Below, in pieces: positions 1-33,942 of a stretch of 33,942 bases of DNA. Positions within the stretch are counted from its first letter, which is position 1; each line of letters opens with the position of its first letter. The notes below the pieces were generated by a model. That model had not been told where the DNA came from. It made no database searches and saw nothing but the letters and a program-made list of their open reading frames with translations. The stretch is from contig CAZJVM010000027.1 of the NCBI GenBank assembly GCA_964549305.1, positions 1 to 33,942 on the forward strand. The letters are read 5' to 3'. The translations under genes and the position numbers were made by a program. The stretch is from an uncultured bacterium. GTDB taxonomy: Bacteria > Schekmanbacteria > GWA2-38-11 > J061.

Positions 1-141
1 GATAGGAGCGCAAAAGCAGGGAAAAGATATTTCTACAAGCTTGTCGATATTGAAATTGGAGGTGATGAAAATGTGAATGAGCCAAATCCCAGTGCAAAAA
101 TAAAAGCTAAAAATAAACGGCAGAAGAAACACAGAAAATAG
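1..141 (+). CDS. 3' end of a CDS truncated by the window edge; probable secreted/surface protein
   Basis: Frame +1 is open from base 1: DRSAKAGKRYFYKLVDIEIGGDENVNEPNPSAKIKAKNKRQKKHRK, TAG at 139-141. The D..A..G..YFYKLVD...G pattern resembles the end of Fn3/Ig-like modules in secreted proteins. Confidence 0.65.
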   Translation, partial: DRSAKAGKRYFYKLVDIEIGGDENVNEPNPSAKIKAKNKRQKKHRK

Positions 142-179
142 ATTATAAAAATTATAAATAATGATAAGGAGTTATTATT

Positions 180-344
180 ATGAATAACAATATGAAAGAG
201 ATGGAAAAAAAGAAAGACGAGGTGGTAAAATCGGGAAAGGATTTAAAACCAAAATATGCTTCTCCTGAGATAATAACTTATTCAGGTGATGACATTTTGA
301 AGGAGTTAGGCACTGCGAAAACCTGCAGTCCTTTTCCTCCATAA
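180..344 (+). CDS. Putative RiPP precursor peptide, 54 aa (not in ORF track)
   Basis: AAGGAG RBS precedes ATG 180. Translation MNNNMKEMEKKKDEVVKSGKDLKPKYASPEIITYSGDDILKELGTAKTCSPFPP, TAA 342-344. Has a KPKYxxPxI RRE-binding-type motif and lies directly upstream of an RRE-fused radical SAM gene. Confidence 0.85.
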   Translation: MNNNMKEMEKKKDEVVKSGKDLKPKYASPEIITYSGDDILKELGTAKTCSPFPP

Positions 345-370
345 GACAAAGCGATTAAAAAAGATACTTG

Positions 371-414
371 AAACCTTGCCTTAAAAATGAACTTTTAAGG
401 CAGGGTTTTTTTTT
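371..414 (+). terminator. Rho-independent terminator between precursor and radical SAM gene
   Basis: Stem AAACCTTGCCTTAAAA (371-386) pairs with TTTTAAGGCAGGGTTT (393-408) with one G-U pair; 6-nt loop; T run to 414. Confidence 0.85.
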
Positions 415-440
415 GAAAAAAAGTTATTTATTTTTTAAAT

Positions 441-1802
441 ATGCGAAAAATGGAAGATAGAAAAACTTATAACCCCACAGTGAGTCAGAGCTTTTTTCTG
501 GAAAGAAGAGAAGGAAAAAACCTTCTTACCCACAGAAATCGTCGTGCGTTTGTCGTTGTCAATGACTCGGGACTTGAAATTATCCGCTTAATGGACGGAA
601 GCAGAAGTATTGATGATATAAGTAAAATAATTGCCGGTAAATATGGAGTTAATAGCAAAACCGTTCGGGAAGATGTTTTAAATCTGATAAGAAAGCTTGA
701 AGAAAGCGGTTTTCTTGATAATAACAATATTGAAACGATGACCGGTAAATGTTCTCCCGAATCCCTTTCAATCCATATAACAGACAAGTGCAACCTATCC
801 TGTCTTCACTGCTACAATGAAAGCAGTCCTTCTTCCCTAAAAGAACTTTCATTTGAGAAAATAAAGGAATTGATTGAATGTTTTAAGAAACTTGGAGGTG
901 AATCGCTTACTCTTACGGGAGGTGACCCTCTCCTGCATCCTCATTTTCAAGAAATTCTGAAAATGACAAAAAGATTTAAGCACGTATCCGTCTTAACAAA
1001 CGGAACTAATATAGACAGTAATTTTGCAAAACTGCTTAATGAATCGGGTGCGCGAATCCAGATTAGTCTTGACGGGTCAACTGCGCAGATAAATGACCGG
1101 ATAAGAGGGAAGGGAGCTTTTAAAAAGATTGGAAGAGGAATTGAATATCTCAAAAAAAATGGTGCCGGAGATAAAATAGTTATTTCCGCTACTGCGATGA
1201 GACAGAATATCCGCAATGTTCCGGCAATTATTGAACTTGCAGAAGGAATGGGAATAAAAAATTTCAGATGCCTTCCATTGAGGCGGGAGGGATGCGCAGA
1301 TAAAAACCGCGATGAGATATCTTCGGGGATTGATATTGATGATTATTATTCTCTTTACAGAGAGATTGACCGTTTGAGGGAGATTAAAAAAGGAAAGATT
1401 GATATTGAAACCGGATTCGGAAGGTCCGCATTGAATATGCAAGGCGATGAAAACGGGCTTTCATGTCCTGTGGGAAAAACATTCACTGTCTATGCGCGGG
1501 GCGATGTGTTTCCTTGCCCTGTAATGATGGATGAAATATTTTGCGTGGGAAATGTTTACGAAATGCCGCTTGATGTGATAATCAATTCAACTGCAGTCTC
1601 CACTCTGAGGAAATCCTGCGCAGAGAGAAAGGAGAAGATAAAGAAATGCTCTCTCTGCCTTTGGAAGAATTTCTGCGAAGGCGGTTGTGCGGCAATTGCC
1701 TACCTGCAGAAGGGAACTATTGAGGATGCAGATGATTTCTGTGGGATAAGAAAGGAATTCCTCGGCAAATCTCTTTGGGGGATAGTTTCGGAGAAAGGTT
1801 GA
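441..1802 (+). CDS. PqqD/RRE-fused radical SAM/SPASM peptide maturase
   Basis: N-terminal ~95 aa PqqD-like (VNDSGLEIIRLMDGSRSIDDISKIIAGKYGV...VREDVLNLIRKLEESGFL); CNLSCLHC motif; SPASM cysteines CPVG...VFPC...CSLCLWKNFCEGGC...C. Confidence 0.92.
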   Translation: MRKMEDRKTYNPTVSQSFFLERREGKNLLTHRNRRAFVVVNDSGLEIIRLMDGSRSIDDISKIIAGKYGVNSKTVREDVLNLIRKLEESGFLDNNNIETMTGKCSPESLSIHITDKCNLSCLHCYNESSPSSLKELSFEKIKELIECFKKLGGESLTLTGGDPLLHPHFQEILKMTKRFKHVSVLTNGTNIDSNFAKLLNESGARIQISLDGSTAQINDRIRGKGAFKKIGRGIEYLKKNGAGDKIVISATAMRQNIRNVPAIIELAEGMGIKNFRCLPLRREGCADKNRDEISSGIDIDDYYSLYREIDRLREIKKGKIDIETGFGRSALNMQGDENGLSCPVGKTFTVYARGDVFPCPVMMDEIFCVGNVYEMPLDVIINSTAVSTLRKSCAERKEKIKKCSLCLWKNFCEGGCAAIAYLQKGTIEDADDFCGIRKEFLGKSLWGIVSEKG

Positions 1803-1807
1803 TTATT

Positions 1808-2956
1808 ATGAATTACAAAGGAGAAGGAAAGGGATATTCGCGCAATATACGCAGAGCTTTTTACAAGATTCTCGATTTTTCTTTTCTTATGGAATCGGAT
1901 TCAAAGTCATTGCTCGATGCTTTTGAAAACTCATATGGAAGATTTAAAAAAAATGATATTTCCGGGAAGTTTTCCACATTCGGTTTTTTTACAGTGAAAG
2001 CGGAAGAAAATCCTTATGTGATTTTCAAAGGTAAAAAATATAATCTTCCTCCCTCGGAGAATGTACATATTTACGCGGTCTCATTCGTAATGAGAAATGT
2101 GATAGAAAACATCAGGGAGTACTTCCTCATACACGCAAGCGCAGTTGAACGAAACGGGGATGCAATAGTTATTTCCGGGCCTCCCTCACACGGCAAGACA
2201 AGTCTTGCTCTGAAACTTTCCGAAAAGGGATTTAATCTCCTTTCCGATGAGTATGCCCCCCTTTGCAGAAAGAATGGCAATCTATTGCCCTTCCTGCAGG
2301 CAGTAGGCATAGAAGATGAGGCATTGGAGTTGTTTTGGAAGGGGAAATATGCTGAAAAAGATAAACGGATAAGAAATGATTTACGCAGTAAAGCAAAGTG
2401 GGTAATCGATGCTGATAGTATCAGTCACGTAAAAAGCGATATGAAATTCGGATTGAAATATTTTTTCCTCCTTAAATCCTCAGGCACAAATGAAAAGGAG
2501 GATGTCGTTGAGGTCGCTTTTTTGCGTAATGCCGAAACCATCAAGGATAAATTCTGCCATATTGATGAAGTTACGGTTATCTCTGAAGGAGTGGTTGACG
2601 GTTATGCCTCCGCAAGGTTTTCCGTACCTAAAACCAGGAATGTCATAAACGCCTTTGATAAAGTGCGACATAAAGAAAAAGAGCACATAATTTATGTTGA
2701 GAAGATTGAAGAGGGTAACCCCGATTTTTCGAAGAAACCTTCTGCAAGAGAGGTTTCCATACAACCCCTTTCCATTGAAATTATGAAAAATATGAGAAAT
2801 TTCACTAAAGGAAGCGAGCTTTTTGAAGAGTTTGAAGGAGATTATTCAAGAGTGATTTTTGAAATTACCGCTTTGTTAAGGGGTGTGAAATGTTTTACCC
2901 TGAAACCGGGAAACCTTGATGATACTGCAGACCTCCTGATTGACATTATTTCCTGA
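1808..2956 (+). CDS. HprK-related P-loop Ser/Thr kinase
   Basis: IHASAV motif, Walker A GPPSHGKTS, LLSDE. ATG 1808 after AAAGG is preferred over the ORF-track start at 1775. Confidence 0.85.
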   Translation: MNYKGEGKGYSRNIRRAFYKILDFSFLMESDSKSLLDAFENSYGRFKKNDISGKFSTFGFFTVKAEENPYVIFKGKKYNLPPSENVHIYAVSFVMRNVIENIREYFLIHASAVERNGDAIVISGPPSHGKTSLALKLSEKGFNLLSDEYAPLCRKNGNLLPFLQAVGIEDEALELFWKGKYAEKDKRIRNDLRSKAKWVIDADSISHVKSDMKFGLKYFFLLKSSGTNEKEDVVEVAFLRNAETIKDKFCHIDEVTVISEGVVDGYASARFSVPKTRNVINAFDKVRHKEKEHIIYVEKIEEGNPDFSKKPSAREVSIQPLSIEIMKNMRNFTKGSELFEEFEGDYSRVIFEITALLRGVKCFTLKPGNLDDTADLLIDIIS

Positions 2957-3013
2957 TATATTATTGATTTAAAAGAGCTTTTAATGGCGGCAACCTTTAA
3001 AGAACCTAATGCG

Positions 3014-6000
3014 ATGATAAAAAGATTTTACCTTGTCATATTTTGCCTCTTCTTTTTTGTCTATGCTGATTCGCGTTTCTGCGAATCCGTTGAATCCCTT
3101 AGACTTATAAGCGGGAATGACTCGGGTCTGGTTGGCGAATATCAATTGCCCTCTTATTCCATTGTCAATGCTACAGACCAAAAAGAAGTCGGTTATTCAG
3201 AAATTGAGATACCTGATACATTCCCGTTGCTTGAATGCGGCAAACCTAAAATTGTTCAAAAGTCTTTTATGATTGCAATTCCCGAAGATGTAAGTCCTCG
3301 CATTGAAATTCTTTATAAAGAAACGGAAGACATCGGTGATATTAATATTCCTTTGGCGAAAAAAAAATATTATCCAGATGAATCTTTCATTGAAGCGAAT
3401 AAGGCATCCGGTCTGTGCGAAGGAATATTTAATGAGAATACTTTATATCCTCAAAATATAATTGAAATCGATAATATTGGTTTTCTGAGAAATCAGAAAG
3501 TCGCGAGAGTTACAATCTATCCTGCCAGGTATCTGCTGTCTGAGCAAAAATTGAAGATATGTAAAAAACTGAAATTCAAAATACATTTTGATAATATCGC
3601 GGGAAGCGCGAGAAGAATTGTAAAAGGTGGTTTCCCGGGAATGTCGCGAGGGAGAAACAATACTTTTGACAGGTTAATAAGCGCTTCGGTCATAAACAGT
3701 TATTCGCCTTCTCAGGGATTTAAAAATAATAATTTGTCAAAATCATTTAAGCAGGCAAAACTTCAGGAATTTAATTTAAAAGTCAAAACAAAATCTGCCG
3801 GGTTTTATGTGATTGGCTATGATGAGTTTAAAAAACTGCATTATGCTCCTGAAAGCATTGATCCCCGTAATCTGCGAATTTTTCATAAAGATGTTGAAGT
3901 ACCGCTTTTTATTGAGGGAGAAGATGATGGAAAATTCGACAAAGGAGATTTCCTTGTTTTTTATGCCAATGATGTTGACAGTGAATACAGTCGTTACAAT
4001 ATATATATTCTTTCATACGGAAGCACTTCGGGGTTGAGGATGGCAAAAAGAGACGGGACTCCAACGACTACCGTGAATGTAACTGAGGATTTCAGGAATA
4101 AAATTCATTTCGAGGAAAACATCGAATATGTGAAATATACTTTTGAAGAAGGAGCAGACCACTGGTATTGGAGCAAACTAAACCCCGGGGGAAAAAAGAA
4201 TTTTCCCTTCGAGGTGAACAATCCATTATACGCAGATAGTAATATTACAGTAACAGTTTCAATCAGGGGATTTACTTATAATTCTTCGGACACAGAAAAT
4301 CATCACGCAAAAATATCTTTAAACGGAGAGCTTATAGGGGAAAAATATTTCAAAGGGCAGGAAGAAGTTCTCTATGAAACATCGGTTTCGGACACATCAC
4401 TTATCGACGGGGAAAATTATTTGTCCGTAGAAAACCCCGGAGATACGGGTTCATCAGTTTACATTGACATCTTTCTTTTTAATTCCATTGATGTAAATTT
4501 CAGGCAAAAGCTCAAAGCCGAAAAAGATGAAATAATTTTTTCGTTGGAAGGTAATACCGGTGAAACATTCGGAATAAGCGACTTTTCCGGAAGCGATATT
4601 TGGGCATTTGATATAAGCAACGCAGAATCCCCTGAGATAATCACAGGCGTATTGAAAAATGCTTATGAAGATGAAGAAAAACTCAGCAAGTATAAAGCCT
4701 ATTATTCGGATAATTCGGATTCTGCTGGGACAATTTATCTGCTTTCATCGGATAAGTTTAAAAAACCTCTCAAAATATCCGAAATCTCGCCTCAAAAAAT
4801 TAAGGGTACATCAACGGGAGTTGATTATATTGCCATAGTTCATGATAAATTTTTTGATGCAGTAAAACCGCTTTTGAAATTCAGGGAGAAGAAGGGGTTA
4901 AAGGCAAAAGCGTTTAAAATTTCAGACATCTACAATGAGTTTAGTTCGGGAATTCCCGACGCGCGGGCAATAAAGGATTTTTTACGATACGTCTATGAAA
5001 ACTGGGATCCTGTTCCTGCATATGTACTCCTGGTAGGAGATACAGTTTTGGATTATAAAAATTATCTCAATTACGGGAGAAAATCATATATTCCCGTAAA
5101 ATATCTTGATTCAAGGTTTTCGGCGGAGTATCCAAGCGACAGTTGGTTTGTGGAAGTGAACGGTGATGACATATTTCCGGATATGCTAATTGGCAGAATA
5201 CCTGCCAACAGCGTGTCGGATTTAAAGGCGGTAATTAAGAAGATTAAAAAATATGAGAATGGCTCATCCGGCAAGGTGTGGCAGAAGAAAGCAGTTTTTG
5301 TTGCCGATAATAACGATGATATTTTTCAAAACGGCCTTGACTATTTGGCGGATACTTACCTTTATTCCGATTTTAGTCTTAAAAGGATATATCTGTCTGA
5401 CTATAACGATTGCACGAATAGCGGATGCTCTTCTGTTACAAAAGATATTTTGGACAGTATTAGCGCGGGCACATTGATGACAGTTTATTCGGGGCATGGA
5501 AACGTCAATAACTGGGCAGGTGAATTAGCGTTGCAGACTTCGGATTTGGATAAAATCAAACAAAATAAAAAATATACATTTTTGACGACTTTAAACTGCA
5601 ATAACGGATATTTCGTTAGATTGGGAGAGAAGTTTTCATTGGGTGAAAAATTTCTTATGACAGACAATGGCGGGGCAATAGGCGCCTTTGTGTCAACGGG
5701 CTTGGCGTTTGCAAATGAAGAGAAAAATCTTTCAGTAGAACTTTTTAAATTAATTTTTGATGAAGGTGAAAACGAGCTTGGATATATTACAACGAAAGCA
5801 AGAGTATCAGCGTACAGCTATGGCATTTCAGATGAGATTATCAAATTCTTTCTTCTTTTCGGCGATCCCGCGCTTCGCCTCAAAATAAATACCGAAAGAA
5901 TCATTCCGCAAAGTCCTTTAAACGGTGATAAAATTTCAAAACAGGATAAAGACAGGTTGTTTTTTTCATGGCAGTCGCCTCAGAGTTATAAATTCAGAAT

Positions 6001-6223
6001 TCAGTTTTCCGAAGATGAGCTATTCACCAATAAATACGGGTTTAAAATACCTCTAAAGGGCTGGATAAAGAAGAATAAGAAAAAATGCGAAAAAGTGAAA
6101 GCCCAAAGCATCAGGGAATTAATCGATGGCAACGATGGAGAAATATTCTGGAGAATCAAAGGTAAGCCCGTTAAAGGAGTTGAAGGAAAAACTTTATTCA
6201 GTACTTCGAGAAAGATGAGATAG
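3014..6223 (+). CDS. Secreted C25 (gingipain/PorU-like) cysteine peptidase with N-terminal propeptide
   Basis: Signal peptide MIKRFYLVIFCLFFFVYA from ATG 3014 (track start 2984). Propeptide-like region (GKPKI...YP...GFLRNQKVARVTIYP). C25 motifs IYNEFSSG, YVLLVGD, PDMLIGRIP, catalytic YSGHG and LNCNNG, LFGDPAL. Confidence 0.9.
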   Translation: MIKRFYLVIFCLFFFVYADSRFCESVESLRLISGNDSGLVGEYQLPSYSIVNATDQKEVGYSEIEIPDTFPLLECGKPKIVQKSFMIAIPEDVSPRIEILYKETEDIGDINIPLAKKKYYPDESFIEANKASGLCEGIFNENTLYPQNIIEIDNIGFLRNQKVARVTIYPARYLLSEQKLKICKKLKFKIHFDNIAGSARRIVKGGFPGMSRGRNNTFDRLISASVINSYSPSQGFKNNNLSKSFKQAKLQEFNLKVKTKSAGFYVIGYDEFKKLHYAPESIDPRNLRIFHKDVEVPLFIEGEDDGKFDKGDFLVFYANDVDSEYSRYNIYILSYGSTSGLRMAKRDGTPTTTVNVTEDFRNKIHFEENIEYVKYTFEEGADHWYWSKLNPGGKKNFPFEVNNPLYADSNITVTVSIRGFTYNSSDTENHHAKISLNGELIGEKYFKGQEEVLYETSVSDTSLIDGENYLSVENPGDTGSSVYIDIFLFNSIDVNFRQKLKAEKDEIIFSLEGNTGETFGISDFSGSDIWAFDISNAESPEIITGVLKNAYEDEEKLSKYKAYYSDNSDSAGTIYLLSSDKFKKPLKISEISPQKIKGTSTGVDYIAIVHDKFFDAVKPLLKFREKKGLKAKAFKISDIYNEFSSGIPDARAIKDFLRYVYENWDPVPAYVLLVGDTVLDYKNYLNYGRKSYIPVKYLDSRFSAEYPSDSWFVEVNGDDIFPDMLIGRIPANSVSDLKAVIKKIKKYENGSSGKVWQKKAVFVADNNDDIFQNGLDYLADTYLYSDFSLKRIYLSDYNDCTNSGCSSVTKDILDSISAGTLMTVYSGHGNVNNWAGELALQTSDLDKIKQNKKYTFLTTLNCNNGYFVRLGEKFSLGEKFLMTDNGGAIGAFVSTGLAFANEEKNLSVELFKLIFDEGENELGYITTKARVSAYSYGISDEIIKFFLLFGDPALRLKINTERIIPQSPLNGDKISKQDKDRLFFSWQSPQSYKFRIQFSEDELFTNKYGFKIPLKGWIKKNKKKCEKVKAQSIRELIDGNDGEIFWRIKGKPVKGVEGKTLFSTSRKMR

Positions 6224-6246
6224 CTCCTTTTTTATTTCAAAAGAAA

Positions 6247-6795
6247 ATGCCATACAAAAATGATACAGACATTTCGTGGCGAATCCATTCAGGACTTCAT
6301 AGTAATGGCTATATCATTATGAATATTTCCGGGACGAGCATGAATCCCATCTTATCTGAAGGCGACGAGATAACCGTAGAAAAAATCAAGTTTGAAGATA
6401 TCCGCAAAGGAGATATCCTCCTTTTCAGGATTGGCGACACTTTTTTTGCCCACAGGTTTGTGAAATATATTAAGCGCAGAGATGACCGAAAGGGAAAAAT
6501 CATTCAATGCGGTGACAACAGCATGGAGTTTAAACCTGTTGATGAAGATGCTGTTGTGGGAAGAGTGAAAAGCGTAAAGAGGATAGATTCGGTAGATTGT
6601 CTGACACAAGGCAGTTGGAAAATTTTAAACAGACTGACAGGTATTATTCAGAATGCTTTATACACAGTCACGTGTAAAGCAGAGAAAGAGGAAAATAAAA
6701 AAATTTTACAAATTTATGGTAAAATAACACATATCTTTGCTAAAACTACCATAGGTTTTTTTTCACGTTTAAGGGGCTTTTTTTCAAAAAAATGA
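6247..6795 (+). CDS. S24/S26 family serine peptidase (signal-peptidase-like, no N-terminal TM)
   Basis: GTSMNP (catalytic Ser), KGDILLF, AHR (Ser-His type dyad), GDN, VVGRV. Confidence 0.85.
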   Translation: MPYKNDTDISWRIHSGLHSNGYIIMNISGTSMNPILSEGDEITVEKIKFEDIRKGDILLFRIGDTFFAHRFVKYIKRRDDRKGKIIQCGDNSMEFKPVDEDAVVGRVKSVKRIDSVDCLTQGSWKILNRLTGIIQNALYTVTCKAEKEENKKILQIYGKITHIFAKTTIGFFSRLRGFFSKK

Positions 6796-6804
6796 TGAGA
6801 AAAG

Positions 6805-7902
6805 GTGAAAAAACAAAATAATATCAGCGCCTATGCAGACTACATCTTGGTTTTTTTCAGTACTATCCTGATTTTTCTTACAATTCCCTATGTCCCAAAA
6901 ATATGGCTATCCCTTGAAAGCGATGAGAAGAGAATTGCTGTCAATATTCTTTACTTTCTTTTTTTGTCAACTGCCCTTGCACTAATTTTTATTATATTCC
7001 GAAAAAAAGATTATTCTTTTTTAAGATTTGGAATTCTTCTGATAATTTCATATTTTTATGTTGAAGTATTTTTAAGCCTTTATCGTTTTCCGGCGGAAAA
7101 ATTTCATCTTGCCGAGTATGGAGTTCTGACATTATTCGCTTTCAGGTTGTTTTTAAAGAAAAACAGCGCTTTGTCTGCAATCGTCAAAGCGACTTTTTAT
7201 ACTTTCTATGTAAGCATTATAGACGAAACAATCCAGTGGATAGTGCCGGGGAGAGTGGGGACATACGAGGATTTAATAATAAACATTAAAAGTGTGCTTC
7301 TTTCCCTCGCTGTTGTGTGCGTGATTGTTTTTCCCGTGAAACAGGGGATGAGATTTACCAGAAAAGAAGTAAAAGAGTCTTTGTTCTATTGCTTTTTCGC
7401 CGTGATTTTAATCTGTTTTTTCCTTTATAATGTTCATAGCTATGGATATGTAATTAAAGATGAGGATTTGAGTTTTTACTCTTCTCTGACTAAATCGGAG
7501 TTGGAGGAAGTTTCAGAAAAAATTATCAGGAAGAAGGAGTTGTTGAAAGATTCTCAGATAGACAGGGCAATAAAGGATAAAAAGATAGAGCATCTCGAAG
7601 AAGAGAAAAGAAATATTGCCTATTTTTTGAGCGAGAGATACAGGCACCTCACCGAGAGCGAGATCGCGTTATCTAAAAACAAAAAGGAAAAAGCATATTT
7701 TGAAAAGCTCATAGCAGACAGGTATTATCCTCTTTACGACCTGCACGACAAAAAGACGGAAATTGTCCGGCAAAACAAAGCGGAGGGGATTTACACAAGC
7801 CCTGTAAAATCTGAACTAATAGTGAGTTTCTCAAAAAAGCAACTCATCTTAGCGGGTTTTTTTTCCGGCGCTATTGTTTTAGCCGTCGCTATATTTGTTT
7901 GA
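6805..7902 (+). CDS. VanZ-like multi-pass membrane protein with soluble C-terminal insert
   Basis: EKFHLAEYGVL and IIDETIQWIVPGRVGTYEDLIIN are VanZ-type motifs; many hydrophobic helices; GTG start. Confidence 0.8.
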   Translation: MKKQNNISAYADYILVFFSTILIFLTIPYVPKIWLSLESDEKRIAVNILYFLFLSTALALIFIIFRKKDYSFLRFGILLIISYFYVEVFLSLYRFPAEKFHLAEYGVLTLFAFRLFLKKNSALSAIVKATFYTFYVSIIDETIQWIVPGRVGTYEDLIINIKSVLLSLAVVCVIVFPVKQGMRFTRKEVKESLFYCFFAVILICFFLYNVHSYGYVIKDEDLSFYSSLTKSELEEVSEKIIRKKELLKDSQIDRAIKDKKIEHLEEEKRNIAYFLSERYRHLTESEIALSKNKKEKAYFEKLIADRYYPLYDLHDKKTEIVRQNKAEGIYTSPVKSELIVSFSKKQLILAGFFSGAIVLAVAIFV

Positions 7903-8135
7903 AAAATGGTTACAGCGGGGAATAATGAGATAAATCGGACTGATAAAGGTTAATCAGAATTAAATGCTATCTAACCTTCTGTTATTTTTGAAAAATCTTA
8001 ATATAATAATCGACTCATATTGAATTGATGCTTTAATGCAATAAGCCTCATAGGCAGTTGACTGTAAGCCGAATATCTTTTTTTAATTGTTAACTTTTCT
8101 ACAGCTTCGGGATACAATATTTCCACGGAATAAAT

Positions 8136-9296
8136 ATGAAAAACAGTATTAGAGTATATGTTACAGGAATCAACGGAATACCCGCGAGACACGGTGGTTT
8201 TGAAACCTGTGTGGACAATGTTGCTGTAAGGCATGCAAAAAAAGGTCTGAAAGTAACTGTATATTGCAGGAAAAGAAATGTTAAATTGAAAGATGACTAT
8301 TATGAAGGCGTGAAGCTGATAAAGCTTTCGTCTTTAGGTCATAAAAGCCTTGAAACGCTAAGTCATACCTTTCTTTCCATTCTTCATATGCTTTTTAGAA
8401 GAAAGGAAATAGTGCATCTATATGGCGTTGGAAACGCGGTATTTCTTCTAATTTTAAAACTCTTTGGGAATAGAGTTGTTGTTTCTGCAGATTCCTTTGA
8501 CTGGGAAAGAGACAAATGGGGAAAATTTGCAAAATGGTTCCTGTTCAATTCAGCAAAACTTTCCACAAAACTCTCGGACGCGATAATCGTGGATTCAAAA
8601 TCGGTGCAGAAATATTACAGGGAAAAATTCGGGAAGGAAACTGTTTACATCCCCTATGGCGCTCAAGTGGAAAGAAAAACCAATAAAGATATCCTCACCA
8701 AATACGGTCTCAAGGAAGATAATTATATCCTTTTTGTGGGAAGGCTTATTCCGGAAAAGGGTGTGCACAACCTTATAGAAGCATTCCGCAATCTTGACAC
8801 TGATAAGAAACTCGCAATTATCGGAGGGGATTGGTTTACTACGGACTACATAAAATCCCTCGAAGAAAGGGCAAAAGGCGCAAATATAAGTTTTCTTGGT
8901 TTTGTTTATGATGAGGAATGCAGGGCGATATATTCGGGCGCCTATCTTTATGTGCAACCGTCTCTGATTGACGGTACATCACCTGCGCTTCTCACTGCTA
9001 TGGGAACGGGAAATTGTGTTTTGGTAAATGCAATCGATGAAAACCTCGAAACAGTTGGTGACGGAGGACTGAATTTTAAACGGAATGACGTTGTTTCTTT
9101 AACTGAGGAGCTGAAAAAACTTGTTAACGATGAAAACCTTGTTAAGGAATATAGAAAAAAATCTCTGAAAAGAGTTCAGGAAGTATATAGCTGGGATAAG
9201 GTTGCTGAGGCGATTAGTGATTTGTATGAGGATATCCTGGAAGGAAAAGAAGTGAGAACCGATGTTTATGAAAAGAAAATAGAAATAAAGGGATAA
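8136..9296 (+). CDS. Glycosyltransferase family 4
   Basis: GINGIPARHGGFET N-terminus, LFVGRLIPEKG, PSLIDGTSPALLTAM, YSWDKV. Confidence 0.92.
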   Translation: MKNSIRVYVTGINGIPARHGGFETCVDNVAVRHAKKGLKVTVYCRKRNVKLKDDYYEGVKLIKLSSLGHKSLETLSHTFLSILHMLFRRKEIVHLYGVGNAVFLLILKLFGNRVVVSADSFDWERDKWGKFAKWFLFNSAKLSTKLSDAIIVDSKSVQKYYREKFGKETVYIPYGAQVERKTNKDILTKYGLKEDNYILFVGRLIPEKGVHNLIEAFRNLDTDKKLAIIGGDWFTTDYIKSLEERAKGANISFLGFVYDEECRAIYSGAYLYVQPSLIDGTSPALLTAMGTGNCVLVNAIDENLETVGDGGLNFKRNDVVSLTEELKKLVNDENLVKEYRKKSLKRVQEVYSWDKVAEAISDLYEDILEGKEVRTDVYEKKIEIKG

Positions 9297-9297
9297 G

Positions 9298-10320
9298 ATG
9301 TTTTCTTTGTTAAAAGGGCGCATTGCCCGAAAAGCTACTATGTTTGCCGCAAGAAACAGGGCAATCAGGAATATCATTGAAAAAAACAGAATATCACTGG
9401 AATTTCCTTCAAATATCTTCATTGAGCCTACAAACCGCTGTAACCTTAAATGCAGAATGTGCCCGCAGAATGACAATGAGGATGTGGAGAGGGGATTTAT
9501 GGATATGGCGCTTTTTAAAAAAATAATCGATGAAAGCGTTCAGCACGGTAAAAGAACGGCAATTTTTTTCCACAAAGACGGTGAACCCCTCCTTAATGAA
9601 AATCTGCCTGATATGATTGAATATGCTGTTTTAAAAAAAGCGGCATATAAGACACATTTGAGCACGAATGCCCATCTTCTTAATGAAGATAAAATGAAAA
9701 AGCTTGTAATGTCGGGAATTGACAGCGTTATAATAAACCTCGACGCAAGTGATGAAGAAACATACAAACTGATAAAGGGCAGAGGAGGTCTCAGAGAAGT
9801 GGAAACAAAAATAATGTCAATGATAGACTTCAGGGATAAAATGAAAAGAATCAATCCCGCCATACGAGTGAAAATAATACCTGTTGAAGAAAATATGAAT
9901 GAAATAGAAGATTTTCAAAAAAAATGGAAACCCTATGCCGATGAAGTGGTAGTGAGCAGAGAGTTTGCCTGGCCGGGCAGAAAATCGGAAAACGGGAAAG
10001 CTTCCAGCCGTGAAGATAACCGTTATCCCTGTATAAGTTTGTGGCTTTCTATGACGATTAACTGGGATGGCAGTGTTTCCGTTTGCTGCATCGATTATTA
10101 CCATCGGGGCATTATCGGGAATGTGAGGGAAAAGAATATTGCGGACATCTGGAAAGGAAAACGCCTTCAGGAAATCAGGAAATACCATATTGAAGGCGAT
10201 TTCGGCAAGGTCGCTGTTTGCAAAGATTGTAAAGGATTATGGGTAAGAGATACAGTTGGAAGAAATTCAGAAAAGTGGTTAAAAAAAAGAATGTTAAAAT
10301 CGGAGTTATGGAATGGATAG
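9298..10320 (+). CDS. Radical SAM protein with short SPASM/twitch domain (glycan-locus type)
   Basis: IEPTNRCNLKCRMC, GEP, C-terminal YPC...WDGSVSVCC.D...IGN...IW...CKDC. Confidence 0.9.
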   Translation: MFSLLKGRIARKATMFAARNRAIRNIIEKNRISLEFPSNIFIEPTNRCNLKCRMCPQNDNEDVERGFMDMALFKKIIDESVQHGKRTAIFFHKDGEPLLNENLPDMIEYAVLKKAAYKTHLSTNAHLLNEDKMKKLVMSGIDSVIINLDASDEETYKLIKGRGGLREVETKIMSMIDFRDKMKRINPAIRVKIIPVEENMNEIEDFQKKWKPYADEVVVSREFAWPGRKSENGKASSREDNRYPCISLWLSMTINWDGSVSVCCIDYYHRGIIGNVREKNIADIWKGKRLQEIRKYHIEGDFGKVAVCKDCKGLWVRDTVGRNSEKWLKKRMLKSELWNG

Positions 10321-12235
10321 AGAAACTAAAAAAAATAGAAACGGCTTTGTAAATGAGCTCAAAAGTTTTATTCCGAAGCTTTTACTGCTTGGATTCATTA
10401 ACGGGATTTTCGTACAATTCGGGACTATTTTAATAAATAGCGATGTTATTTCTTTTGGAGATAGTTTTGTAATTGCTTTATATTTTGTTGCTATTTTTTC
10501 CATTGTTTCTTTTTTTGGCGGTGTCATTCTTTTCTCATTACTTTATTTTATTTTTTCCTTTTTAAGACCTTCGATTATCGCAAGGGGATTTCTTGAAAGA
10601 TATTTCTTCATCATAGTTTTTGCAATTGGGGTTTTCTATCCTCTTTTTAACAGATTATCTATGAACTATTCCTATTATTCACTTTTTCCCTTTGCAGACA
10701 CTTATTATAAAATGGCTATTCTTTTGTGGAGCGTTCTTGCCCTGTTGATATTGGTGTCAGTTCTTTTATCTTTTGCCATTACTCTGATTTATCAACTTTC
10801 GTACAATATTATGACCGGGCTTTTTGGCAGATGGCAGATTACAGCAGGAATAATAGTTCTTTTTATATGCAGTTCAATATTCCCTGTTTTATACAACAGG
10901 AGTGTTCAAATAGAGTTTTCCCAAATGGAAGGGGAAGTTCAACAGCAGGCATACGGAAAGGATAATAATGTTTTTCTTATTGGAATTGACGGCGCTGATT
11001 GGAGAATCATTGACCCTTTGTTAAAGGAAAGCAAGCTCCCTAATTTCCAGAAATTGATAGATGATGGTGTGCGCGCAGGTATGAAAACATCGGTTCCTAC
11101 CTATTCTCCCATTTTGTGGACATCCATTGCAACCGGACAGAAACCGGAAAAACACGGCATAAAGTCCTTTATAATGATGTATTTTTTTGGAGCAAAAACT
11201 CCCCTTCAGGATATCCTGGAAAGGGGTTTTTTCAGCAAACTTGATTATCTGAAGTTTACGGGATTGGTAAATGTTTTTCCTTCGAATACCTATTTAAGGA
11301 AGACTCCTGCAATTTGGAACATTCTATCAAGGGTGGGGAGAAAATCGGTGGTAGTTAACTGGTTCCCTTCCTGGCCCGCGGAGCATATAAACGGATATAT
11401 GATTTCAGACAGATTTATCCGCTCCGTCATTACCGAGAAGGAACTTCACCACGACCCCTGCGGGAAATATAATCATCTTGTTTATCCTGACTCCATTTGT
11501 AGAGAAATTGCCGACGATACAGAGAGTTATCTTTCCGAAGATTTGAAAAACAGAGAATTCGTTACGCCATTTCAGAAATACTCCTGCCAGTCGGAGAATA
11601 TTTATTTTAATCTTTCACTTGATATGCTTTCGAGAAACAACGGGACTGACTTCTTTACGGTCTATCTGAGAGGTACCGACGATTTCGAGCATGAATACTG
11701 GAAATACAGAAAATCCGATGCAAAAAAATTTCCTTATGTTACTGATGAAGAAAGAGAAAAATTCGGAAGCATTATTGACGATTATTATATTCAGGTGGAC
11801 GCTTATATCGGTGAGGTACTAAAAAGAATCAATGACAATACTTCCATTATAGTAATATCAGACCACGGACACGAGCCCTTTTTTACGGGTCTTAACTCAA
11901 AACAAAACGGTGCTCACGGTTTAGGACCTGATGCAATATTCATTGCGTCCGGGAAAAACATATCAAAGGAATTCAAAGGGGGAAAACCGTCTATCTATGA
12001 TATAACACCTACTATTTTGTATCTTCTCGGGCTTCCCACTGCTGAAGATATGGACGGTAGAGTCCTCGAAAATGTAATTGATACAAAACTACTTGAAGAA
12101 AACCCTCCGAAAACCATTCCGACTTATTACATCAAAAAAGATAAAAAAACGAAAGAAGAAGGCGAAAAAAACAAGAAATCAATGGGTGATGAAAAACTGA
12201 TGAATAAACTGAAAGCCCTTGGATATATAAACTGA
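10313..12235 (+). CDS. Membrane-anchored alkaline phosphatase superfamily (nucleotide pyrophosphatase/phosphodiesterase-like) protein
   Basis: About 5 N-terminal TM helices; IGIDGADW, PTYSPILWTSIATG, GTDDFEH, ISDHG, DITPTIL...MDGR; C-terminal LKALGYI. Confidence 0.88.
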   Translation: MDRETKKNRNGFVNELKSFIPKLLLLGFINGIFVQFGTILINSDVISFGDSFVIALYFVAIFSIVSFFGGVILFSLLYFIFSFLRPSIIARGFLERYFFIIVFAIGVFYPLFNRLSMNYSYYSLFPFADTYYKMAILLWSVLALLILVSVLLSFAITLIYQLSYNIMTGLFGRWQITAGIIVLFICSSIFPVLYNRSVQIEFSQMEGEVQQQAYGKDNNVFLIGIDGADWRIIDPLLKESKLPNFQKLIDDGVRAGMKTSVPTYSPILWTSIATGQKPEKHGIKSFIMMYFFGAKTPLQDILERGFFSKLDYLKFTGLVNVFPSNTYLRKTPAIWNILSRVGRKSVVVNWFPSWPAEHINGYMISDRFIRSVITEKELHHDPCGKYNHLVYPDSICREIADDTESYLSEDLKNREFVTPFQKYSCQSENIYFNLSLDMLSRNNGTDFFTVYLRGTDDFEHEYWKYRKSDAKKFPYVTDEEREKFGSIIDDYYIQVDAYIGEVLKRINDNTSIIVISDHGHEPFFTGLNSKQNGAHGLGPDAIFIASGKNISKEFKGGKPSIYDITPTILYLLGLPTAEDMDGRVLENVIDTKLLEENPPKTIPTYYIKKDKKTKEEGEKNKKSMGDEKLMNKLKALGYIN

Positions 12236-12239
12236 AGAT

Positions 12240-13574
12240 ATGAATATAAAAAAGAAAATCGTTATCCTGGGCGGCGGGCTTACCGGGTTAAGCAGCGCTT
12301 TCCATCTGGAGAAAATACGGGGGAAGGCGAATTTCGATTATATTGTAATTGAAAAGGAAAAAACTTTAGGAGGTCTTTGCCGCAGTTTTGAATCGAAGGG
12401 TTTTACCTTTGATATAGGCGGTCACTTTCTTCACACAAAAAATGCGTATATTAAAAAACTTGTTCGAAAATTGCTTTCAGATAACAGGCGTGAAGTAGAG
12501 AGAAAATCGGAGATATTGACCACCGGTAGAAAAATGCCTTATCCCTTTCAGGGAAATCTTTTTTATCTTCCCGATAAGATAAAATTTGAATGCCTTGAAG
12601 AATATGTAAAAGCCTATGCGCGCAGGGAAAATGGTAAAAATAAGGATATGAATTTCCGGGAATGGATTGAATTCAATTTCGGAAAAGGTATTGCAAGACA
12701 TTTTATGATTCCTTTCAATTCGAAGCTCTATGGTTATCCTCTCGATAAAATTCATGCTGAAAATATGAAAAAATATATTCCGGTGCCGGATTTAGGAGAA
12801 GTGCTTGACGGAGCGCTTTTTAAAAGCGGAAAACTCTTTGGATATAACACGACATTTACATATCCGCAAAAAGGCGGAATTCAGACGCTTGTAAATGCTT
12901 TTGAAAGTGAAATAAGAAATACAATCAAAGGAGAAGAGGTATATAAGATAAACATGAAGAAGAAGATTGTTTCTCTTAAATCAGGGGAAATTATTCATTA
13001 TGATTCAATTATTTCATCCATCCCTTTAAAAGAGCTTTCGTCTATCATAGAAGACGCTCCTGAAAAAATCCGCAGGGAAGGCGAAAAGTTAAAATGCGCT
13101 TCATTGGTAATAGTAAATGTAGGTTATAGAGCCAAGAGAAAAATGAAGACCCAGTGGTTTTATCTGCCGGGCGGAGAATATTCCTGTTATAGGGCAGGAT
13201 ATTATTCTGCAGTCGCGCCTTCTATGGCGCCAGCGAGAATGAATTCCGCCTACATAGAATTTTCTCTGGGTGAAAGAGAAGGGAAAATCAATGTGTCCGC
13301 ATATAAAAAGAAAGCTGTAAAAAGTCTGAAACTGATGGGCGCAATTTCCCGTGAGAGCGATATCTTGGTTTGTGACGCGATACCCGTTAGGTACGGATAT
13401 GTGATTTTTGATAAAAATAGGGATAGCAGTGTCAATAAACTATCTGATTTTCTTGAAAAAAAGAATATATATGCCGGAGGAAGATATGGAAGATGGGAAT
13501 ATTCGGCAATGACAGATGCCATTGCCTCAGGTAAGGGAATTGCAGAGAGAATATTAAAGAGAGGTTTGCTTTAA
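12240..13574 (+). CDS. FAD-dependent oxidoreductase (NDP-sugar mutase/protoporphyrinogen-oxidase-like)
   Basis: ILGGGLTGL Rossmann motif, GGLCRS...FDIGGH, FTYPQKGG, GRYGRWEY. Confidence 0.82.
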   Translation: MNIKKKIVILGGGLTGLSSAFHLEKIRGKANFDYIVIEKEKTLGGLCRSFESKGFTFDIGGHFLHTKNAYIKKLVRKLLSDNRREVERKSEILTTGRKMPYPFQGNLFYLPDKIKFECLEEYVKAYARRENGKNKDMNFREWIEFNFGKGIARHFMIPFNSKLYGYPLDKIHAENMKKYIPVPDLGEVLDGALFKSGKLFGYNTTFTYPQKGGIQTLVNAFESEIRNTIKGEEVYKINMKKKIVSLKSGEIIHYDSIISSIPLKELSSIIEDAPEKIRREGEKLKCASLVIVNVGYRAKRKMKTQWFYLPGGEYSCYRAGYYSAVAPSMAPARMNSAYIEFSLGEREGKINVSAYKKKAVKSLKLMGAISRESDILVCDAIPVRYGYVIFDKNRDSSVNKLSDFLEKKNIYAGGRYGRWEYSAMTDAIASGKGIAERILKRGLL

Positions 13575-13577
13575 CAG

Positions 13578-14105
13578 GTGCCGATGAAAAGAAAAGTTAC
13601 AGTAACAGGTAAAGAGTCTGATGATTTGTATCTGGAAGAAATAGACCATTCTGACGGGGATGTTTTGTTAAAGTGGAAAAACGATAACCGGGAAGCTTTT
13701 TTTTTCACAGAAACTATTACACCTGAAATGCAAAAGTCGTGGATGGAACAATATGACAGTGATCCAAATAATTTTATGTTTATTTTGAAGTTTATGGATA
13801 AACGAGTTGGAATAATGGGATTTAAAATTTTGCCGGAAGGGGCTGAGATATATAACGTAATACTGGGCGATAAAGAGTCAGGGGGGAAGGGGATTATGAG
13901 CAGAGGCATGGGCCTGATGATTAATTTTATAATGAAAAAAGATATACAAAGAATATTTCTAAGGGTTTTAAATTCCAATAAAAATGCAATAAGGTGGTAC
14001 AAAAAAAATGGTTTTGTCATAAAAGGTAAACTTGAAAGTTATCATTTAATGGAAATAGATTTTAGCAAATTTACTCCAAATAAAATAAGCGTGGAGGAAC
14101 GTTAA
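13578..14105 (+). CDS. GNAT N-acetyltransferase (PseH/RimJ-like)
   Basis: LLKWKND, GGKGIM acetyl-CoA loop, VLNSNKNAIRWYKKNGF. Confidence 0.85.
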   Translation: MPMKRKVTVTGKESDDLYLEEIDHSDGDVLLKWKNDNREAFFFTETITPEMQKSWMEQYDSDPNNFMFILKFMDKRVGIMGFKILPEGAEIYNVILGDKESGGKGIMSRGMGLMINFIMKKDIQRIFLRVLNSNKNAIRWYKKNGFVIKGKLESYHLMEIDFSKFTPNKISVEER

Positions 14106-15229
14106 TGGCGGGGAAAATGATTTCGTTGTTTGGTTCAAAAGTCGGTTCTGAAGAAATTGAAGAAATCAGGACTAGTATTGACAATCAGTGGCTTGGGATT
14201 GGGCCGAAATGCGGCCTTTTTGAGGAAAAAATGTCAAAAAGGCTGAAATGCGACTATTTTGTAATGCTCAACAGTGGTTCAAACAGTCTTCTTCTTGCTA
14301 TTAAGCTTTTAAATCTTCCTTCGGGGTCTGAAATTATAATTCCGTCTTTTACATGGATTGCCTGCGGACATTCCGCCGTACTCAATGACTGCAAACCGGT
14401 ATTTTGTGATGTGGATATAAATACCCATAATATTACGCCTGAGTTGGTTGAACCTCATTTAAGCCATAAGACCGGAGCCATAATGATTGTTCATTATGCC
14501 GGAAAACCGGTTGATGTAGATGGCTTTAAAAAGTTCGGGCTTCCCATAATAGAGGATGCGGCTCATGCCGTCGATTCACATATTGATGGGCGCTATTGCG
14601 GAACTTTGGGGGATGTGGGGATTTACAGTTTTGACGCAGTAAAAAATCTTAGCATTGGCGAGGCAGGCGGACTTACAACGCCAAATAAAGAATATATTCA
14701 AAAAGCGAAACAGTTGAGATATTGCGGAATAGGGAAATCTGGATTTGAAAGTTCAGCCAATAAAAACAGATGGTGGGAATACAATGTCACCGACTTTTTC
14801 CCTAAAATTATTCCCGATGATATAAGCGCATCTATAGGCCTGGCTCAACTAACAAAACTGGATAAACATCAGGAATACAGAAGGCAAATCTGGGACATAT
14901 ACCAAAAAGAATTCAAAGAGCTCGGATGGTTCAATATTCCTGTTAATGCGGGAGAAAAAGAAAAACATTCATATTTTACATACTGTATTTGCTTAAATAA
15001 TGACAAAAGAGATGAACTTGCAAAATATCTTTATGATAATGGAATTTACACAAGTCTGAGATTCCATCCGCTGCACCTTAATAAGATTTACGGTTCCGAC
15101 AGCAAGCTTCCCAATTGCGAAAAATTGAGTGAAAATGCCCTGAATATTCCCATTCATCCCGGATTGGAAGAAAATGACATTAATCTGGTCATAGATAAAA
15201 TAAAGGAATTCGGGAGGAGTCATTGTTAA
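14105..15229 (+). CDS. DegT/DnrJ/EryC1/StrS sugar aminotransferase
   Basis: NSGSNSL, PSFTW, VHYAG, IEDAAHA, SFDAVKN (PLP lysine), EAGG, IPIHP. Confidence 0.93.
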   Translation: MAGKMISLFGSKVGSEEIEEIRTSIDNQWLGIGPKCGLFEEKMSKRLKCDYFVMLNSGSNSLLLAIKLLNLPSGSEIIIPSFTWIACGHSAVLNDCKPVFCDVDINTHNITPELVEPHLSHKTGAIMIVHYAGKPVDVDGFKKFGLPIIEDAAHAVDSHIDGRYCGTLGDVGIYSFDAVKNLSIGEAGGLTTPNKEYIQKAKQLRYCGIGKSGFESSANKNRWWEYNVTDFFPKIIPDDISASIGLAQLTKLDKHQEYRRQIWDIYQKEFKELGWFNIPVNAGEKEKHSYFTYCICLNNDKRDELAKYLYDNGIYTSLRFHPLHLNKIYGSDSKLPNCEKLSENALNIPIHPGLEENDINLVIDKIKEFGRSHC

Positions 15230-15249
15230 TGCTGAAGGAGATATTTTAA

Positions 15250-31034: not shown

Positions 31035-31575
31035 AAAAGAAAGAGTGTCGCGGGAATACGAAGTGGAATTTTTAAAAAAAATTATGCAGGGGAGAGTACT
31101 CCTTCCCGCAGTTGTTGGCTTGATTATGTTTTTGCTCGTCTTTTCCGTAGGAGGAATATTTCTTGTTACAAAGGTGAAAGAAAAAACTACAGGCATTATG
31201 AATGTTTCAGCGGGTAATAATGAAAATCCGGGAGATAGCGCGGCTTTCGATGTGAACTTGTCTTTGAATTACAGGTATGAAGTCAATCGTGGCGACGAGG
31301 TGGAGGTTGTTTTGAAGGATTTGAACAACCATGTTTATTTAGAGGGAGGCGTGAAAGAAATAATATCAAATGCCCCGGTTAAAGGGGAACATTACAAAAA
31401 AATTATTGTGAAAATAAATGATATTAAAAGTTCCGGTGAAAATAGTGACGGGGAAATCATAAAGAGAATCGAGGCAGATTCAAATATAAGTGTTGATGTT
31501 TTTGTCAGGTCAAGGCAGTTGCTTGAACTTTTTGTAGGGGAGAAACTCAGAAAATTAGCAGGGAGATTTCTTTAA
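31024..31575 (+). CDS. Single-TM protein, truncated HlyD/membrane-fusion-like accessory
   Basis: One TM, a beta-rich domain (VNRGDEVEV...LEGGVKEI) and a HlyD-like C-terminus (VDVFVRSRQLLELFV). Overlaps the ABC gene stop. Confidence 0.6.
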   Translation: MGLKKERVSREYEVEFLKKIMQGRVLLPAVVGLIMFLLVFSVGGIFLVTKVKEKTTGIMNVSAGNNENPGDSAAFDVNLSLNYRYEVNRGDEVEVVLKDLNNHVYLEGGVKEIISNAPVKGEHYKKIIVKINDIKSSGENSDGEIIKRIEADSNISVDVFVRSRQLLELFVGEKLRKLAGRFL

Positions 31576-31578
31576 GCT

Positions 31579-33805: not shown

Positions 33806-33869
33806 GGGTTTTTGAAGTAAGTGCGGCAAATGGCAGTTAACATTTATTAACCGATAAGGGGGTGAGGAA

Positions 33870-33942
33870 ATGGATTTTAAGGATATCGAAAAGATTGCGG
33901 GAGCGGTAGTTGGTAATCTTTTCAGCCCGAGAAGTGCTAATG
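33870..33942 (+). CDS. 5' end of a CDS truncated by the window edge; candidate precursor peptide
   Basis: Strong purine-rich RBS AAGGGGGTGAGG before ATG 33870; MDFKDIEKIAGAVVGNLFSPRSAN..., open to the end of the window. Confidence 0.6.
   Translation, partial: MDFKDIEKIAGAVVGNLFSPRSAN

Follow-up and report, generated by a model that had tools for sequence, protein, structure and literature searches.

The window analysed here is the entire 33,942-nt contig CAZJVM010000027.1 (assembly GCA_964549305.1), read on the forward strand, from the 2.9-Mb genome of an uncultured member of the Schekmanbacteria (100% complete; labelled G000 below). Near its start lies a cassette of the type that encodes peptides made by ribosomes and modified after translation (RiPPs), which very probably makes a small chemically modified peptide. 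An initial annotation had proposed six co-oriented, closely spaced genes, and all six open reading frames (ORFs) are present on the + strand, with domains recognized by Pfam or NCBIfam models in all but the peptide: a 54-residue precursor peptide (180–344), preceded by an AGGAG-type ribosome site; a radical S-adenosylmethionine (rSAM) protein with PqqD, Radical_SAM and SPASM domains (441–1802; Pfam E-values 6.7e-12, 6.2e-28 and 2.6e-8); an HprK-related P-loop protein (1775–2956; TIGR04352 at 59.7 bits against a cut-off of 200, Hpr_kinase_C E 0.0028); a 1079-residue Peptidase_C25 protein with a Propeptide_C25 domain (2984–6223; E 1.2e-81 and 3.9e-14); an S24/S26 peptidase (6247–6795; E 5.2e-8 and 3.7e-5); and a VanZ-like membrane protein (6805–7902; E 7.1e-9, above the Pfam cut-off). 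None of the cassette enzymes passes an NCBIfam equivalog cut-off. The intergenic distances are 96, −28 (an overlap), 27, 23 and 9 nt. Within the 96-nt gap between the peptide and rSAM genes sits a terminator-like hairpin on the + strand (370–409; 17 pairs and a T run), which might serve as a partial terminator and so set the ratio of precursor to enzymes; the scan found six terminator-like sites overall against a mean of 6.4 in shuffled sequence, and only the stem length of this one stands out.

The six genes are real, but the unit does not start at 180, as had been proposed. An ORF that is open at its 5′ end, cut by the contig start, occupies positions 1–141 of the + strand and stops 39 nt short of the peptide gene. 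It codes for the final strands (..GKRYFYKLVDIEIGG..) and the Lys-rich tail of a secreted protein with a C-terminal FN3-like domain, called the tail domain here (tail-domain hidden Markov model, HMM, E 6e-6), so that the unit begins upstream of the peptide. The same ending recurs in four more proteins of this genome, on contigs C8, C51 and C132 (two). Genes for such FN3-tailed proteins, which flank the peptide or are fused to it, had been overlooked, and they argue against a free-standing natural product.

The precursor has no match in Pfam or NCBIfam. Its leader includes KYASPEIITYSGDDILKELGTAKT, with KYASPEI as a YxxPx(V/L/I)-type motif, and the peptides of genomes G000, G004 and G001 have in common P-x-Y-x-x-P-E-(I/V)-I-T-Y-x-x-D-(D/E)-..-L-G-....-C. 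A profile search gathered a family of 55 proteins, and a search of 1.84 billion representatives returned 548 at E ≤ 0.001 and 100 at E ≤ 1e-10. Across the 55 sequences the leader consensus is xYExPEVITYTxEEILEELGPAQA, with Y26, P29, T33, Y34 and G44 invariant, and hypervariable C-termini follow it. The leader profile also met one 7727-residue protein (P0056) in which 59 separate stretches match its positions 16–33, either a repeat protein that mimics ..ITY..E.. or a chance low-complexity match.

Core statistics were drawn from 112 distinct sequences, after removal of loci L025, L087 and L090, which carry one identical peptide-like sequence with no partner genes near and are probably spurious. 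At position −4 Pro occurs in 103 of the 112 and at −3 Ala in 110, while −1 holds Ala 75 times and Thr 31 times. As P-A-x-(A/T) is the kind of site classically recognized by signal peptidase I, we place the cut after A-x-(A/T), which would leave the window peptide with a six-residue core, CSPFPP. Just past the predicted cut, +1 is Cys in 64/112 and +2 is Ser (45), Tyr (30) or Thr (8), 83/112 in all; 107 of the cores have Ser, Thr or Tyr somewhere at +2 to +4. A lipoprotein signal with a lipobox before Cys+1 was rejected, as the leader is acidic and has no hydrophobic stretch, and many cores are Cys-free.

The rSAM protein contains the motif CNLSCLHC (CX3CX2C) and a C-terminal CX2CX5CX3C, both read from the translation. 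The best 25 of the 88 NCBIfam rSAM models that it matched all fell under their cut-offs (the top one, MftC, at 128.4 bits vs 265), and among these 25 no named rSAM/SPASM maturase class was reached, be it sacti-, ranthi-, mycofactocin, PQQ or anaerobic sulfatase-maturating enzyme (anSME). Its PqqD domain is fused to the rSAM in the window; in G004 and 14 of 87 related loci it forms a separate protein. A PDB search with this domain gave only weak matches (TbiB1, E 0.073; ‘PqqD family protein’ 9x8z, E 0.26). Across relatives the gene for this enzyme tracks the composition of the core. An rSAM gene lies within 700 nt downstream of the peptide in 38 cases, and 37 of these 38 peptides contain Cys, typically in cores of the form C-(S/A/T)-P-x-P-C, whereas the cores of all six kinase-first loci without an rSAM gene (L019, L022, L083, L094, L096, L098) are Cys-free and open with x-Y- or QLS. 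The sole Cys-free case with an rSAM gene next to it is L029 (9983–11650), a decayed cassette whose degenerate peptide has neither the A-x-A site nor a core and whose rSAM gene is split over three frames.

This correlation fits a Cys-directed radical SAM step. The PqqD-type domain, as a RiPP recognition element (RRE), would bind the 54-residue precursor through its YxxP leader, and the rSAM would then alter the Cys-containing core CSPFPP. A crosslink had been proposed, and one competing view is that the enzyme makes none and oxidizes the first core Cys. It would then resemble the anSMEs, a group of SPASM enzymes that generates formylglycine at C-x-P-x-R motifs. The commonest cores, C-(S/A/T)-P-x-P, are similar to that sulfatase motif, CSPFPP with its one Cys in six residues offers little space for a ring, and the anSME model TIGR03942 is among the matches. 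However, at 84 bits that match is far under the cut-off of 349 and weaker than those to MftC, StsB, AhbD and ScmE, and a further Cys stands five residues along in many cores (C-x-P-x-P-C), as would suit a crosslink or disulfide-like pairing. We consider Cys oxidation of this kind quite improbable.

The HprK-like P-loop protein is likely the peptide kinase. Its Walker A motif reads GPPSHGKT, and across 23 orthologues H120, G140 and K141 are invariant, with T142 and D158 nearly so. The structural model (predicted local distance difference test, pLDDT, 79.7) lies nearest to ATP-dependent phosphoenolpyruvate (PEP) carboxykinase and HprK/P, which belong to one fold class; a PDB sequence search gave no meaningful match (E 0.086, to an unrelated protein). 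The kinase would phosphorylate a hydroxyl residue just past the cut, probably Ser at core +2, possibly several times.

The S26 peptidase had been listed without a role, although it is likely the leader peptidase, of a SipW/archaeal cytoplasmic type. Its top NCBIfam model is the archaeal-type signal peptidase I, under cut-off. S31, H69 and D90 (counted on the translation) fall in the motifs GTSMNP, AHRF and GDN, and GxSMxP, HR and GDN are kept in 10 orthologues. No hydrophobic segment precedes the catalytic Ser in any of these 10, and the window protein lacks an N-terminal membrane helix, so that the catalytic domain should be cytoplasmic. There it would cut the leader after the signal-peptidase-like A-x-(A/T).

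The initial annotation knew of no characterized product for such a gene set, a statement that has been outdated since May 2026 by the linear polyphosphorylated peptide (LPP) clusters of Bacillota, which comprise LppA, LppK, LppB, LppS, LppD and LppN (Popov et al., Nat Commun 2026; PMC13381572). As described there, the LPP leader motif is YxxPxVLxHQxIxFETxxS; the HprK-like LppK puts up to four phosphates on core Ser3; and the SipW-like LppS (S29, H68, D93) removes the leader after Thr-1, in dependence on the discrete RRE LppB (PMC13381572). The clusters also carry an MsbA-like exporter, LppD, and a nucleoside triphosphate (NTP) transferase, LppN, that was inactive in test; they sit in capsule loci, and their authors describe a patchy distribution and relate it to conflict systems (PMC13381572).

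The window cassette shares with the LPP clusters the YxxPx(V/I) leader, the variable C-terminus, the absence of a lasso cyclase and the adjoining polysaccharide genes, as well as a hydroxyl residue two to three positions past the predicted cut and Thr or Ala at −1. The S26 residues S31/H69/D90 parallel LppS S29/H68/D93, a comparison of motifs rather than of sequence. On the other hand, the RRE is here fused to an added radical SAM/SPASM enzyme, C25 and FN3-tailed proteins are linked, and the cores are far shorter (6 residues here vs 45). The hosts differ as well: the LPPs come from Bacillota, and the present system from Schekmanbacteria, Thermodesulfobacteriota, Aminicenantes, Chloroflexota and Planctomycetota. 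The main text of the LPP paper makes no mention of radical SAM, SPASM, C25 or gingipain (PMC13381572), and among open-access papers and bioRxiv we found nothing on the combination of an HprK-like kinase, radical SAM, C25/PorU and a RiPP. A cut in the LPP register, 16 residues past the Tyr, was rejected: it gives Glu or Lys at −1, and the near-invariant A-x-(A/T) lies seven residues further. The cassette thus resembles the LPP clusters in architecture and likely mechanism, a resemblance that we do not extend to membership of that class. The product had been proposed to be crosslinked and phosphorylated; both are properties that we infer, and a phosphorylated product is backed by the LPPs as a characterized system with the same architecture.

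Other known systems are further away. Paeninodin-type lasso peptide tailoring likewise uses an HprK-like kinase on an RRE-bound YxxP/WxxP precursor (PMC13381572), but here there is no macrolactam cyclase and no B2 peptidase, and the TIGR04352 match is that low one of 59.7 bits vs 200. Pfam and NCBIfam models detect neither a lasso cyclase nor a B2 peptidase in window positions 1–12235, and with no cyclase a lasso pathway was rejected, in agreement with the initial annotation. The sole Asn-synthase homologue of the window (25114–26991, − strand) was considered as a lasso cyclase and set aside: it scores 246 bits vs 525 with the cyclase model, passes the AsnB model TIGR01536 (452 bits vs 267) and is AsnB or XrtA-type amidotransferase-like instead. 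The likeness that had been drawn to SynChlorMet and HprK-related systems did not hold at the level of models, as no SynChlorMet or HprK_rel_A cut-off is passed. SynChlorMet (TIGR04248–04251; known from bioinformatics only) does combine an HprK-related protein, a PqqD homologue and PqqE-like rSAM/SPASM enzymes, and the PqqD and kinase proteins of relatives give weak ScmD and ScmC matches. However, ScmE and ScmF reach only 115.3 and 101.7 bits vs 400, no window protein matches ScmC (E ≤ 0.01) or ScmD, there is one rSAM here and not two, and S26 and C25 are added.

The link to a secreted C25 peptidase was borne out. The protein scores 275 bits with PF01364 (cut-off 23), has the catalytic His and Cys motifs, and carries an N-terminal hydrophobic signal as well as the C25 propeptide domain. 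Its closest solved relative is PorU (6za2, E 5e-21), with whose GHG and C motifs its SGHG and LNC align. The likeness to PorU and the T9SS (secretion system of type IX) also covers the presence of linked secreted proteins that share one C-terminal beta-sandwich domain; the difference is that the tail domain here is FN3-like and outside Pfam/NCBIfam, and that the PorU model NF033707 stays under its cut-off (310.9 bits vs 420). Neither a T9SS tail domain nor SprA (models TIGR04183 and TIGR04189) was found in G000, a weak negative since control genomes were equally silent. By eye, the last ~90 residues of the C25 protein (window ~5950–6220; ..FSWQSP..FRIQFSEDE..IFWRIKGK..) resemble an extra domain that follows the FN3-like tail in partner proteins of L015, L039, L085 and L060 (..FEWE..F.L.FS..PDF...YW.V.G.D..), possibly a second shared module. 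On contig C51 of the same genome (223–6205, minus strand) a paralogous C25 of 952 residues is grouped with a small PEP-CTERM-like protein and an FN3-tailed protein that ends in Lys-rich sequence, the tailed protein 1.1 kb from the C25 gene with only the PEP-CTERM-like gene between. No peptide gene is near, so that the pair of C25 and tail domain also stands alone.

VanZ, which had been counted as a cassette member, was found as such in G000 and G004 only and in none of 89 loci from other lineages (0/89); it is a lineage-specific add-on. Synteny with G004 continues past it (window 8136–16632; L012 16789–20000) into polysaccharide-type genes, with a GT4 protein with DUF1972 and a second rSAM/SPASM protein shared by the two genomes and followed in the window by an AlkP-family membrane enzyme, two amine-oxidase-like flavoproteins, a GNAT protein and a DegT aminotransferase. 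These polysaccharide genes 3′ of the cassette echo the capsule-locus setting of the LPP clusters (PMC13381572).

Five genomes represented the phylum in the collection. G004, of the same family as G000 and another genus, has a kinase only 28% identical and the order PqqD, peptide, a secreted 573-residue protein, rSAM, kinase, C25, S26-like, VanZ, GT4, second rSAM, in which the order peptide, rSAM, kinase, C25, S26, VanZ of the window is found again; G001 has peptide, rSAM and kinase, after which the contig ends within the gene of a secreted FG-GAP protein. A peptide-profile scan of two collections added 20 loci on genome contigs and 69 on metagenome contigs, with the peptide parsed in 87 of the 89. 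The 20 genome loci belong to Aminicenantes, Thermodesulfobacteriota/Desulfobacteraceae, Anaerolineales, Caldilineaceae, Planctomycetota (including Brocadia) and ‘Proteobacteria’, and the cassette order without VanZ occurs in at least five other phyla. Its recurrence in G004, in part in G001 and in other phyla argues that the cassette is more than a chance arrangement.

The loci were annotated with HMMs built from Schekmanbacterial proteins, and as many contigs are short, occurrences were counted in subsets. In the 28 loci whose sequence downstream of the peptide extends for 5 kb or more, a kinase is present in 16, C25 in 15, rSAM in 14, S26 in 11, PqqD in 10 and a tail-domain gene in 16; those of the 28 that lack enzymes are pairs of peptide and tail domain, or degenerate (L029, L087). 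The gene-neighbourhood check that the initial annotation had suggested thus shows that homologous loci keep both the peptide and the C25/S26 linkage. C25 occurs in 18 of 25 kinase-bearing loci, and an enzyme or tail-domain gene lies within 500 nt of the peptide in 34 of the 37 loci that have 1.2 kb or more of sequence to each side, the exceptions being L097 and two of the probably spurious loci (L025, L090).

The tail domain was recognized with an HMM of the ‘FG-GAP’ proteins of G001 and G004, which matched diverse secreted proteins near peptide genes (with Lcl_C, He_PIG, MopE, TSP3 or FG-GAP domains), always within one C-terminal stretch of 100 residues. Its consensus is L.SF.A....V.L.W.T.SEIDNAGFNLYR....G.Y..IN..LI.AEG....GA.Y.F.D..V.N..TYYYKLEDID..G.ST.HGPV. 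No Pfam or NCBIfam model matches it, and it is predicted to fold as an FN3-like sandwich (pLDDT 87). What follows the domain is a short basic tail, a Lys-rich tail (in Schekmanbacteria) or a hydrophobic helix with a basic cluster.

The tail domain and the peptide are closely coupled. In G005, the genome of L026, L028, L030, L032 and L033, which has 31 tail domains, each of the nine peptide genes (9/9) is at most 340 nt away from a tail-domain segment or the gene that holds it, mostly 12–100 nt downstream. Among 151 genomes of the class of G007, with the tail domain counted at E ≤ 1e-20, the peptide occurs in two genomes and the kinase family in the same two, and the tail domain occurs in 10 genomes, all of them within the 31 that have C25. 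As in the other counts, the genomes are related and not independent samples, so that the numbers overstate the support. In this sample, by our reading of the position tables, the tail domain and C25 are often found in one ORF or in adjoining genes.

The two are also found in single proteins. Three of the best 150 peptide-family representatives are long proteins that end in the peptide, and a search with the fusion C-terminus brought the fusions to seven (ENA, NCBI and JGI), with contigs as long as 53 kb. In all seven the order is passenger, tail domain, ..CGVVDGP.., a hydrophobic 19-mer (Kyte–Doolittle 1.95–2.47), a basic linker (RKKLKR..), leader (..YEPPKILTYSGEELLEELGPAQA) and core, the last of the form CRGFTCPV(S/A)P(T/G/A)P and equal to CRGFTCPVSPTP in five of the seven. 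The passengers are LTD, LamG or other domains, with a signal peptide in 6/7 (P0201 being without). By the positive-inside rule, leader and core would form the cytoplasmic tail of a single-pass surface protein. One genome, G335, has three of the fusions and four free peptide genes, together with a cassette that consists of a tail-domain gene, a free precursor with core CRGFTCPVSPTP, PqqD, rSAM, kinase and C25. The fusions and the core shared within G335 are Rosetta-stone evidence that the peptide and the tailed proteins take part in one process, and the G335 fusions fit enzymes that work in the cytoplasm.

It is against this coupling that the most ordinary explanation has to be weighed, namely that the cassette makes a secreted RiPP, an antimicrobial or a signal, with C25 as final extracellular protease or co-regulated neighbour and the FN3-tailed proteins as bystanders of a surface or exopolysaccharide locus. 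Short, hypervariable cores behind a conserved leader are classically seen in natural products; the distribution is patchy, with the peptide in 2/151 genomes of one class and weak kinase matches in G003 of the type of the second cassette of the window; a similar patchiness of the LPPs is tied by their authors to conflict systems (PMC13381572); and C25 is missing from some loci. Yet in the seven fusions leader and core would make up the cytoplasmic tail of membrane proteins with the FN3-like domain, 9/9 of the G005 peptide genes abut tail-domain genes, the cassette holds no exporter or immunity gene, and S26 already explains leader removal. We regard an ordinary secreted RiPP as unlikely, if with some chance of being right, and a free antibiotic is probably not the product.

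The nature of the peptidase raises a further possibility, that the mature phosphopeptide is an acceptor or adaptor in a sortase-like reaction, in which C25 would cut the FN3-tailed cargo near its C-terminus and join it to the N-terminal amine of the peptide, or anchor it through the peptide phosphate to a glycan or lipid. PorU, the nearest solved C25 relative, is described as sortase-like in mechanism (PMC4560394). The cargo-like proteins have one C-terminal domain in common, behind which come basic tails or a membrane helix and basic cluster, C25 is present in every tail-domain genome of the 151-genome sample (10/10), cleavage by S26 would unmask an amine beside the modified residues, and polysaccharide genes follow the cassette in both G000 and G004. 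Several points speak against it. The peptide is predicted to lie on the cytoplasmic side of the helix in the fusions, and the Schekmanbacterial tails are helix-free. We know of no transpeptidation shown for a C25 enzyme from outside Bacteroidota. Furthermore, no route out of the cell is apparent for a free peptide, the nearest MsbA-like gene (29163–31034) being part of another cassette, which weighs on the reading preferred below as well. On balance we consider such a reaction improbable.

That other cassette occupies positions 29163–33942 and is different from the first. The MsbA-like ABC exporter is followed by a 183-residue protein of unknown type (31024–31575), a PapB-like, ranthipeptide-type rSAM/SPASM enzyme (31579–32844; 270 bits vs 340), a second HprK-related protein (32831–33805) and the start of a precursor, of which the first 24 codons (33870–33941) precede the contig end. 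A homologue of this precursor in G003 (L013 4652–4930) is a Cys-rich peptide of 92 residues with repeated F-D-C-P-like motifs. Two more cassettes with PqqD, HprK-related and rSAM/SPASM proteins lie on contigs C86 (L003 54–2401, minus) and C10 (L005 1–1980, minus) of G000, which thus has at least four kinase-plus-rSAM peptide cassettes in 2.9 Mb, all under NCBIfam cut-offs.

Taken together, we favour, with moderate confidence, an LPP-type phosphopeptide pathway with an added Cys-directed radical SAM step that serves FN3-tailed surface proteins and a PorU-like peptidase. The coupling to the FN3-tailed proteins and to the PorU-like C25 makes the processing or display of such surface proteins the most likely purpose of the peptide module. 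The quinohemoprotein amine dehydrogenase offers a functional analogy: its gamma subunit QhpC starts as a leader-bearing peptide that is crosslinked in the cytoplasm by the rSAM/SPASM enzyme QhpD, in a set that also has a leader peptidase and an exporter, and it then works in a secreted protein complex and not as a free natural product. The families are unrelated, and that system has no kinase, S26 or C25.

A number of observations weigh against this reading. With regard to the LPPs, the kinase, RRE and S26 are likened to LppK, LppB and LppS by motifs, folds and description, not by sequence. Their leader consensus is followed only as far as YxxPx(V/I): the window family has ..ITY(S/T)xD(D/E)ILxxLGxAx(A/T) where the LPPs have ..VLxHQxIxFET, and, unlike the LPP clusters, positions 180–7902 hold neither an MsbA-type exporter nor an LppN-type transferase; among relatives, L022 has PF14907. 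With regard to the peptide chemistry, 5/112 cores have no Ser, Thr or Tyr at +2 to +4, and Cys occupies +1 in two Planctomycetota-type loci (L027, L031) in which an rSAM gene is missing. The association with C25 has its gaps too, as the peptidase is truly absent from three kinase loci with enough sequence (L027, L031, L098). As for the tailed proteins, an FN3 fold is generic, and the topology of the fusions cannot be general, since the Schekmanbacterial tails are without a membrane helix. Cassette queries did not find rSAM, kinase, C25 or S26 in G005, an assembly of unstated completeness, which either lacks the cassette or carries orphaned peptides. Finally, in the sister genome G003, which is 97% complete, the kinase matches were all weak, and the better one (E 4e-13) adjoins an rSAM of the cassette-2 type, which assigns it to the second cassette.

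A more far-reaching form of the preferred reading, which we put forward as a tentative and rather unlikely extension, is that a processing system with two sides handles a new class of sorted surface proteins, and that the cassette supplies its cytoplasmic half. On the outer side, the PorU-like C25 would cut and perhaps re-ligate the FN3-tailed proteins; inside, the RRE, kinase, rSAM and S26 would work on the leader–core module, which might be the cytoplasmic tail of the same protein, as in the G335 fusions, or a separate peptide encoded next to it. The modified peptide could then be an adaptor or acceptor that fixes the cargo to the surface or to polysaccharide, or a cytoplasmic sorting signal. 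If this is true, a RiPP pathway would be in use as protein-sorting machinery.

The LPPs have been known since 2026, from Bacillota only and with no function assigned (PMC13381572). In the present data the set formed by precursor, RRE, kinase and SipW-like peptidase is broadly distributed among uncultured anaerobic phyla, where it has recruited an rSAM enzyme that tracks Cys-containing cores. Its association with FN3-tailed proteins and a PorU-like protease may provide a first concrete lead on what such phosphopeptides are for: not antibiosis but the processing or display of proteins at the surface. It would also suggest that C25 peptidases may be used in a sortase-like manner beyond Bacteroidota.

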